Shown: piece by piece, positions 28,401 to 31,400 of the stretch
Layout of the letters: the number at the start of each line of letters is the position of its first letter
Numbering within the stretch: position 1 is the first letter of the stretch
Assembly: GCF_003790525.1 (NCBI RefSeq)
Contig: NZ_CP033635.1
DNA from: Escherichia coli
GTDB taxonomy: Bacteria; Pseudomonadota; Gammaproteobacteria; Enterobacterales; Enterobacteriaceae
Direction: 5' to 3' (one strand)
DNA length: 64,000 nt
Made by a program: the position numbers

Positions 28401-31400
28401 GGTCGCCACGGCGAAACAGTTGTTGATATTCGGGAGTGTAGTGGTTGAGCACTTCCCGACTGGAGATATCAATACCGTGGAAGATAGTGGCAATTTTGCC
28501 GCGAATGACACCCAGTTCGCGTAGTTTTGCCGCGGTTACCCCAGCAGGGCCAAAATGAGCGATAAACACATCGGCATGAAACGGTGTTGCGACCTGGCCG
28601 CAAATGGCAGACAAAATCAGGTTCCGCGACTCGGCACCATAGCGTTTGAGGTTAAGCGCCTGCCAGGTATTTTTACGATGAATGCCGCGTAAGGTCTGAC
28701 TGGCTCGGTGGCGCAGTTTCGCCACTTTGCCCGTAGGTTCGTCCTGTAACCAGCGGGTTCTGGCGGCAAGGTTGTATTTCGTCCATGCCGCGTGGGTGTT
28801 CTGGGTGTCGCCTTTTTGCAGCGCGAGAATCTCCACCTCAAATCCCATATCAATAAACGCGGTAATTTGGTTAAGGACGAAGGTTTCTGAAGACAGCGGG
28901 AATTTCAGTAAAAAGAAGCCAACCTTCATTTCACTTCCCCGATGCGTTCAAGCACAGATTGCACCATCTGCATTCCTGTCTGACGCTCACGACTGACGGC
29001 TTCGTTAAGTCGTGTATTCAGCGCAGGAAGCTGGCCTAAGGTATCCGCAACCATCGCTTGCAGGCTGCCGTCTAATAAATGACGGATATCAATTGCCATC
29101 TCTGGTAGCCCCAGTTGTTGCATAATCCCGGCGGATTTATGTTCATAGTTGATGGCAATCGCTGGAGTGGCAAAGTTCATCGAGATAATGGCAGAGTGCA
29201 AGCGCGTACCGACGGTGAGTTCACAGGCCGCCAGAATTTTGCCCATTTCCAGATCATTGAGTTCATCCATCACTACGTGGTAACGGGCAGGATCGCTGAT
29301 GTGCTGGCGCAGGTTGAGCGCCACCATGCGGTCGTCTTTGTTATAGCTGTCGATACCCGTACAGGTGGAGAGCGCAATCACCTGATACCCTTCATCGAGA
29401 ATGCGATTGACCACCCCGGCAAAGGCTTTTTCATACGCTTGCTGAGTGGTGCCGAGACGTTTGTCGAACGGTGCCAGTTCGCGTAGGGTAATTGCTACCG
29501 TTTTCTGTTGTGCGGCAACGTCCAGCCAGTGTTGAACGGCATAGCTGGCGGTGAAGTCTTCTGTGTGGTGATCGACCAGCCACGCGGTATCGACGCCATG
29601 TTCCACTTTTGCAGTGGTGATATTGCTGCGTTTCATTAGATCGAGGCTAACCGACTCGCGCAGGATCAGCGCGTCACAGTGACCAAAAACGTAGTTCGCC
29701 AGTTGGTTAAATTGCTCATCCTGGAACGGGCCGACGCTGTGACCAATCATAAACAGCGGCTTTTTCGCCATAAATGTGCAAAGCGCATGTTCAAACTGCG
29801 GCACACCGTAGAGATCGACAAAAAACGATCCGCCGACCTGAATAATGGCGTCGTAACCTGACAGCAGGCGCACGAAGTCGGTGAATCCCTGGGCGATGGC
29901 GATATTACGCAGCTTGCCAGTGTCGGTGACGCGTGAGAGCAATACCTGATGCTGGTAGCGGCGACGGAGGACTTTTTTAACGCGCCCGACAACGCCCGCC
30001 GCGCTGTTGTGTTGTTTCATTTGCAGGAACAGCGGATCGCCCATTACCGGGCGGTTGAGCAGCCAGGAAGAACTGACCGGATAGCGACTCATCACGTCCA
30101 CTTCGGCGTGTGGATTGAGGATGTTGATGGCATCAAGTAAGCCGCGCAAGATGGCGCTGTCGCCGCGGTTGCCGCAAGTGTGGTTGCCCAGAATAAGTAA
30201 TTTCATTATGACCTCAAAAGGAGTTCTAAATTGCGTCGGTGCTATAGTTGATGATTAAGAGTTAAACCGGTGACATATTCAAAGCTGTGCTCGATCAGTC
30301 CCCTCGCCCCCTGGGGAGAGGGTTAGGGTGAGGGGGAAAATGCGCACGACCTTACGGGGATAGCCATTCACCCCGCCCGTAAAAGCATTTTCATTTTTTC
30401 GCTGCGACAAAACTGACGCTTCACTTCCACCACAAGCGGATGGCGCGACAGCACAATCATCACCACAAACGCCAGCACACCCGTGGCTATTTGCACCGCC
30501 AGCAGCATCCCCAGCGCCAGTTGCCCTTTCAGCACAATGCCCAGCGCATAACTGTCCACCAGCGTCGGCAGCGAGAGATAAAACGGCAGCCACAAACTCA
30601 GGATGTACTGGCGATAACTGGAACCGAGCACCGGTTTAATCATCACGAAATAGCTCAGAATGGTGTTGATAATCTGCACCAGCAGGAAGCCAAGCGTGAC
30701 GCCGATTGCGCCCGCCATCTGCCCACCAATAACAATCGCCGGAATAAACAGAAATGTTTTGAATACGTTGAATTTAAAGCTGATGTCCACCCGTGCTTTC
30801 GCCATCAGCAGCGAACCAATCGGGTTACCCACGGAGCGCAGTAGCCCCACCACACACAGCAATTGCAGCACCGGAATAATGCTGTTCCACTTCTCACCAA
30901 AGACCAGCGGTACAAAGTTATTCGACACCACCATCAGCCCCAGCAGCGCCGGAAAGTTGATAATCCCCACTACCGACAGCAGCTTGTAGAAGTTAACGCG
31001 CAGCTTTTCGGTGTCGTCCTGAATTTTGGCAAATGCCGGAAACAACACGCGGGTGATGATTGGGTTCAGCTTCATCGGCGGCACAACGGCCACGTTGTAC
31101 GCCAGGTTGTATCCCCCTGCTACGCCCGCGCCGAGAATACGCGCCAGCACCAGCGTTGAAAGGTTGGTGTTGAGATAGTTGATGATGCTGTCCGCCGTCA
31201 GCCAGGCACCAAAGCGTAAGTTCGGTGCCACCGACGCCAGCGAGAAATGCAGACCGGGGCGATAAATTTTGCGGCCAAAGTAGCCAAACAGCAGCGTTCT
31301 CACCGCACTATTGACCAGATAACCGAGGATCGCGGTCATCGCCAGCGGCCAGAAATGGGCGCTAACCACCGTAAAAGTAAAGCCCGCCAGCACCGCGCTG

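Follow-up and report, generated by a model that had tools for sequence, protein, structure and literature searches.

The BoxC family comprises GC-rich, three-block imperfect palindromes of about 60 bp that lie across the intergenic DNA of Escherichia coli and other Enterobacteriaceae. The family was described in the 1990s (Bergler, Bachellier) and re-characterised in 2000-2002 by Hoyne and Maher and in 2015 by Holder et al. (PMC4666352), and the E. coli element has carried three names in succession: BoxC, later PIT and then TMECO (Holder et al. 2015, PMC4666352). BoxC has a published length of 56 bp and 32 copies. The TMECO consensus is given as 5'-CCCTCNCCC N3-6 GGGNGAGGG N3 GGGNGAGGG[G/T/C/-]-3', with a second loop of TTA in type A elements and of CCG in type B elements (PMC4666352). 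In MG1655, type A 'mm' is the commonest subtype and pairing of A with B copies has been reported; the motif class is associated with variable loci (PMC4666352). Oligonucleotides of type A mm form a triplex in vitro, as followed by CD and NMR, with a Tm of 74 °C; a triplex was not detected by in vivo DMS footprinting (PMC4666352). Hoyne and Maher, as summarised in PMC4666352, observed neither promoter nor terminator activity and no effect on RNA polymerase. Our search of the literature for functional work on BoxC since 2015 gave nothing new.

BoxC elements resemble H-DNA and purine-motif mirror repeats in possessing a three-block Py-Pu-Pu arrangement capable of G*G-C triads on one strand, as established for the family in vitro. 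They differ from H-DNA in being an intrastrand three-block motif, rather than a long homopurine mirror repeat, and in that a triplex has gone undetected in vivo. REP sequences serve as binding sites for gyrase, IHF and Pol I, and RAYT transposases are responsible for their mobility. Like the BoxC elements, REPs and the BIMEs that contain them are GC-rich imperfect palindromes of intergenic and intra-operon spacers, but the two groups are unrelated in sequence, and no gyrase, IHF, Pol I or RAYT-like partners of BoxC are reported in the BoxC literature consulted here (including PMC4666352).

Results

Organisation of the wzxC-wcaK spacer

The element under study lies in the window, the 64,000-nucleotide stretch of E. 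coli DNA analysed here. The record of E. coli FDAARGOS_536 was found to be 100% identical, and the RefSeq annotation of that record names the genes and places them in the colanic-acid cluster; the BoxC copy itself is unannotated in RefSeq. The first-pass annotation had placed a GC-rich element in the wcaK-wzxC spacer, inside the operon, and the gene coordinates agree with that placement. The features of the locus are as follows.

28926..30206, minus strand: wcaK, colanic-acid pyruvyl transferase, downstream in the same operon (ORF list and RefSeq annotation)
30207..30367, minus strand: complete 161-nt spacer between wzxC and wcaK within the operon, in its TMECO-bearing allele (ORF list, RefSeq annotation of the identical record and allele comparison)
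30207..30284, minus strand: single-copy part of the spacer, 78 nt, reaching the wcaK ribosome-binding site (..GAACTCCTTTTGAGGTCATA-ATG) (blastn)
30285..30347, minus strand: full repeat unit, about 59-63 nt, common to the paralogues (positions 4-66 or 7-65 of a 66-mer aligned)
30301..30334, plus strand carrying the G-rich (purine-motif) strand: TMECO/PIT core of the BoxC element (exact consensus match)
30301-30309, plus strand: core block 1, CCCTCGCCC
30310-30313, plus strand: first loop of the core, CCTG
30314-30322, plus strand: core block 2, GGGAGAGGG
30323-30325, plus strand: second loop of the core, TTA
30326-30334, plus strand: core block 3, GGGTGAGGG
30279..30593, minus strand: spurious 104-aa ORF with a GTG start, the out-of-frame 3' end of wzxC continuing through the repeat
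30368..31846, minus strand: wzxC, colanic-acid flippase (ORF list and RefSeq annotation)

The GC-rich near-palindrome was located at 30300-30336 on the plus strand (37 nt, 76% G+C). The wzxC stop codon lies 31 nt upstream of this 37-mer and 33 nt upstream of the consensus core. The element is co-transcribed with the cps operon in its C-rich orientation, the plus strand being the template strand for transcription. Adjoining the cps cluster, at ~18300-23700 of the window, is an O21-type O-antigen gene cluster (wzx, wzy and glycosyltransferases) with a G+C of 0.32-0.38, and low G+C of this kind typically marks an O-antigen locus that has been exchanged horizontally.

The element is a type A TMECO repeat

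Initial description of the element was as a GC-rich, near-palindromic 38-mer at 30299-30336. The string is present, but base 30299 is a 't' that falls outside the near-palindrome, the start having been set one base early. As for its palindromic nature, a repeat finder returned an inverted repeat with arms of 10 nt each at 30300-30309 and 30326-30335 (90% complementary); the architecture of the element, however, is one of three blocks and not a plain palindrome.

A search with the published consensus revealed a single exact match in the window, at 30301-30334 on the plus strand and followed by G, while none of 100 dinucleotide-preserving shuffles contained a match. The TTA at 30323-30325 assigns the element to type A, and a G opposite A between blocks 1 and 2 constitutes one mismatch, corresponding to the 'mm' subtype. 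Table S8 of PMC4666352 contains an identical 35-mer in two entries, no. 62 (APEC O1) and no. 293 (BL21-Gold(DE3)). The records of both strains were fetched and the coordinates of the 35-mers were found to lie between wzxC and wcaK; this exact locus has therefore already been catalogued. Judged by its sequence, the element is, to near certainty, the known BoxC/PIT/TMECO repeat, of type A with one mismatch.

With the described family the present copy shares the consensus, the type A TTA loop, the mm subtype, an intergenic position, homology to paralogues over about 60 nt and a multi-copy distribution. It differs in that a lone type A copy is found here, whereas inverted pairs of type A and type B copies occur at some other loci. 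Its position is intra-operonic, and its C-rich sense is the one transcribed; nothing of substance sets it apart from the family.

Copy number and extent of the repeat unit

Copy number was assessed by BLASTn using a 66-mer around the element. Of 5426 complete E. coli genomes, 5425 contained matches to the query, the median being 18 places per genome (range 2-34), and in 5156 genomes at least one place covered at least 80% of its length. Paralogues were fetched from the phnE-phnD, phnP-yjdP and tusA-zntA spacers, together with a spacer between genes for a hypothetical protein and a glycosyltransferase. The first-pass guess at a dispersed GC-rich intergenic repeat of E. coli is borne out by these counts and paralogues, and the alternative of a single-copy sequence falls with them.

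Alignment of the copies from the four other loci was conserved from GTGCGC.. through the core to ..GAGCACA, a length of ~59-63 nt, and the corresponding unit at 30285-30347 is close to the published 56 bp. In the mRNA sense the unit consists of GTGCGCATTTT, the C-rich core and ACTGATCGAGCACAG, the two flanks being partly self-complementary. For the remaining 78 nt of the spacer (30207-30284), blastn returned 274 of 5426 genomes, with a single place in each.

The record identical to the window contains only four places for the 66-mer. APEC O1, S88 and LF82 are phylogroup B2 strains. Table S8 gives counts of 2 for each of the three (PMC4666352), and the four places in the identical record fit these low counts.

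Alternative spacer alleles within E. coli

A 1-kb query across the spacer matched 4674 genomes, with spanned lengths of ~900 to 1405 bp. Eight genomes were fetched across this length range (L001-L008), of which one (L008) carries the same 161-nt allele as the window and seven have other spacer lengths. One of the seven other alleles is a 72-nt spacer possessing no structured repeat; the rest contain one to five BIME (paired REP) units in 145-565 nt, the two-unit allele measuring 275 nt. The window allele has only its first 6 nt in common with the seven. A REP head motif, GCC(G/T)GATG.., is present in alleles L002-L007 and was not found in the window spacer, such that BoxC and REP/BIME sequences are positional alternatives between wzxC and wcaK. 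Coding DNA on both sides, as far as the stop codon and the ATG themselves, has the diversity that is normal for E. coli; a comparison of wcaK with that of the 72-nt-allele strain revealed differences at 3 of 607 sites. In the urinary isolate E. coli A1.S1.65 (L003), wcaK is annotated as a frameshifted pseudogene.

The TMECO spacer allele is carried by 274 of 5426 genomes, with ~95% of E. coli having no such element at this site. Among the ~276 genomes of the TMECO allele class, 216 have the 66-mer at 99% identity or more. Since the other sampled spacer alleles carry BIMEs or nothing, the TMECO element is dispensable at the site.

The overlapping reading frame

The element had been credited with creating a Gly/Ala-rich ORF at 30279-30593. 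The ORF does exist and runs through the repeat, but its Gly/Ala-rich part is the 3' end of wzxC translated out of frame. Codons 86-98 of 104 (roughly FPLTLTLSPGGEG) come from the repeat, at 30336 to 30300 on the minus strand, after which the ORF continues for five more codons (TDRAQ) before its stop. Because the repeat supplies codons 86-98 only, the element lengthens the ORF and does not create it. In alleles without this spacer, the ORF cannot exist.

Structure and signals in the transcript

Folding of the 45-nt core in the mRNA (C-rich) sense gave a free energy of -19.4 kcal/mol (z -1.3), and 24 of 200 shuffles folded equally well or better. The 70-nt unit in the same sense gave -27.4 kcal/mol (z -1.2), the opposite strand of the core gave -24.6 kcal/mol (z -2.3) and the fold of the whole spacer was unremarkable (z = +0.26). 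The core hairpin is stable, yet this is not evidence of a selected RNA structure. Between 30100 and 30500, neither terminator-like nor promoter-like sites were found (0 of each), and the stem is followed not by a U-tract but by the sequence ACUGAUCGAG. An Rfam scan (E<=10) brought no family near its threshold; the best overlap, with Antizyme_FSE (18 bits against a gathering score of 40, E=1.1), is noise.

These results bear on the first-pass suggestion of a stable mRNA structure affecting processing or polarity within the cps transcript. The hairpin is there on folding, but shuffled sequences fold as well often enough to make it unexceptional. The functional part of the suggestion is not supported, in view of the lack of a terminator-like site, the published lack of terminator and promoter activity (PMC4666352) and the large majority of E. 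coli that do without the element at this site.

Elements upstream of wcaK in other genera

Genome contigs were searched with a degenerate pattern for the WcaK N-terminus, revealing 119 loci from which 106 spacers were extracted. The pattern missed the E. coli type strain, E. albertii, E. fergusonii and most Salmonella; close relatives were represented only by E. whittamii and Escherichia sp. MOD1-EC7003, both with REP-bearing spacers of the majority type. An enterobacterial wcaK start was also present in a 421-bp, 0.8x-coverage contig labelled Aromatoleum evansii (L082) and in a contig labelled Chryseobacterium sp. 18061 (L106), both of which probably represent contamination or mislabelling.

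A wzxC-wcaK spacer of the median length, 30 nt, is too short to hold such a structure, and 71 of the 106 spacers measure 40 nt or less; these many short spacers argue against a required function. Of 108 other enterobacterial species, 12 carry a TM element, called at up to two substitutions from the consensus, in the 400 nt upstream of wcaK. As in the window, the mRNA sense is the C-rich one for the first element past the wzxC stop in Lelliottia, Pluralibacter, Pseudenterobacter, Phytobacter and several Enterobacter or other Enterobacteriaceae genomes; the loop of these first elements is mostly the type A TAA. A second copy, of type B or degenerate, is usual in those genera and lies in the opposite orientation, resulting in an inverted pair (L045, L049, L108, L116, L117, L036 and L081) that agrees with the A+B pairing known from MG1655. 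In the window allele, the type A copy stands alone, and the place of a type B copy is taken by ~60 nt of unique, AT-richer sequence. The tail of the window spacer, GAACTCCTTTTGAGGTCATA, is similar to one found commonly in those genera, GAACCCCTTT(A)AGAGGTCAT; the tail of most E. coli, ATGAGGAAAAA, is unlike it.

Exact matches to the consensus were counted in 874 kb of DNA around wcaK from 106 species (L011-L129). There were 45, of which 15 lie in or beside the wzxC-wcaK spacer and the other 30 are found ~3 kb upstream of wcaK, where the counterpart of the cpsG-wcaJ spacer lies; no exact match was found elsewhere in these 874 kb. A TM element is present at the upstream, cpsG-wcaJ-like site in 22 of 53 species, usually as an inverted pair. 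The cross-genus pattern suggests long residence or a preferred site, and not a recent insertion.

In the window, the cpsG-wcaJ spacer carries a simple hairpin, CCCTTACCCCACTGCGGGTAAGGGG, at 33262-33286 on the minus strand. This E. coli hairpin may be a decayed BoxC/TM relic.

Discussion

The element between wzxC and wcaK is a BoxC/PIT/TMECO copy that is very probably a near-neutral passenger and not a dedicated regulator. Given the near-neutrality that we infer, the element would persist by descent and recombination as a tolerated passenger. Its transcript would be expected to fold into a hairpin with ~9-bp arms, one mismatch and no U-tract, and to be non-terminating. At most, by analogy with REP hairpins, it might weakly impede decay proceeding 3'-to-5' into the wzxC segment. 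The G-rich plus (template) strand, when single-stranded, could form an intrastrand purine-motif triplex, as the class does in vitro. Two observations stand against near-neutrality. Related elements recur in the same spacer and the same orientation in several genera, for which selection is possible as against inheritance or a preferred insertion site; and the E. coli site nearly always holds a structured repeat, be it BIME or BoxC, which is compatible with a shared role at the RNA level.

Such a role would have a hairpin of the cps mRNA protect the wzxC segment, or tune translation or decay across the junction, and so set the stoichiometry between early and late cps genes, with BIMEs doing the same job in other strains; we regard it as possible but unlikely. 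REP hairpins are established mRNA stabilisers. The element is transcribed, sits a short distance past the stop codon of wzxC and has a hairpin of appreciable stability (-19.4 kcal/mol, or -27.4 kcal/mol for the 70-nt unit); moreover, BIMEs occupy the site in most of the sampled E. coli, and TM elements are found there in a number of other species. Against this, the 72-nt allele has no structured repeat, spacers of 40 nt or less predominate in the wider sample, the fold z is only -1.2 to -1.3 and PIT elements were without effect on transcription in published reporter work (PMC4666352). Holder et al. proposed a role at the DNA level, whereby replication or repair would stall at an intrastrand triplex or hairpin that forms transiently, and rearrangement would be frequent there; at the present locus this would account for the many spacer alleles. 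The consensus match is exact, triplexes of this motif class form in vitro, the class has been linked to variable loci, and the locus shows striking polymorphism (spacer lengths from 72 to 565 nt). We nonetheless consider this proposal doubtful for the present locus: its length variation is a matter of BIME copy number in TMECO-free alleles, so the motif cannot be the cause and the variation supports motif-driven instability only weakly. The 66-mer is, in addition, highly conserved within its own allele class, the triplex was undetected by in vivo DMS footprinting (PMC4666352) and the association with variable loci may merely reflect repeats building up in tolerant spacers. Roles in RNA punctuation and in DNA instability are minor rivals to the passenger reading. 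We think it improbable, too, that the wzxC-wcaK and cpsG-wcaJ spacers are selected, conserved positions for a structured GC-rich element across the Enterobacteriaceae, filled by BoxC/TM (often as an A+B inverted pair) in many genera and by BIMEs as a functional analogue in most E. coli, and punctuating either the ~20-kb RfaH-dependent transcript (25.2-49.0 kb of the window) or the DNA; on that account the window allele would be of ancestral type, and not a random insertion.

Dispersal of the family, together with its presence/absence polymorphism among strains, might also bring to mind a recently inserted, MITE-like mobile element. This is very improbable, and the reading was rejected on comparison with the 72-nt allele, which shows no clean insertion: beyond the first 6 nt the two spacers are different throughout, with no sign of a duplicated target site. 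The allele also occurs on diverged backgrounds (97.5% identity over 1 kb), its position and orientation are common to other genera, and the literature draws no link between the family and mobile elements (PMC4666352). A GC-rich hairpin directly 3' of a gene could likewise be taken for an intrinsic terminator or attenuator separating wzxC from wcaK-wcaL-wcaM, a reading whose chances we put as slight indeed. It was rejected on the count of zero terminator-like sites in 30100-30500 and on the missing U-tract; published tests found no terminator activity (PMC4666352), and the downstream genes would depend on read-through from the upstream promoter of the operon, because the spacer itself has no promoter-like site. 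Finally, the ORF at 30279-30593, for all that it presents an open frame of 104 codons, is almost certainly not a real small protein. A coding function was rejected in view of its out-of-frame overlap with wzxC, its low-complexity composition and its end in a spacer that is missing from ~95% of strains.

The value of the finding lies mainly in annotation, both the locus and the family being already known: an element that is unmarked in RefSeq lengthens a spurious ORF. The alternation of this spacer between BoxC, one to five BIME units and no repeat at all within E. coli, and the restriction of TM elements to two spacers in the cps-flanking DNA of 106 species, are in addition modestly useful for understanding the persistence of small structured repeats in polysaccharide operons.
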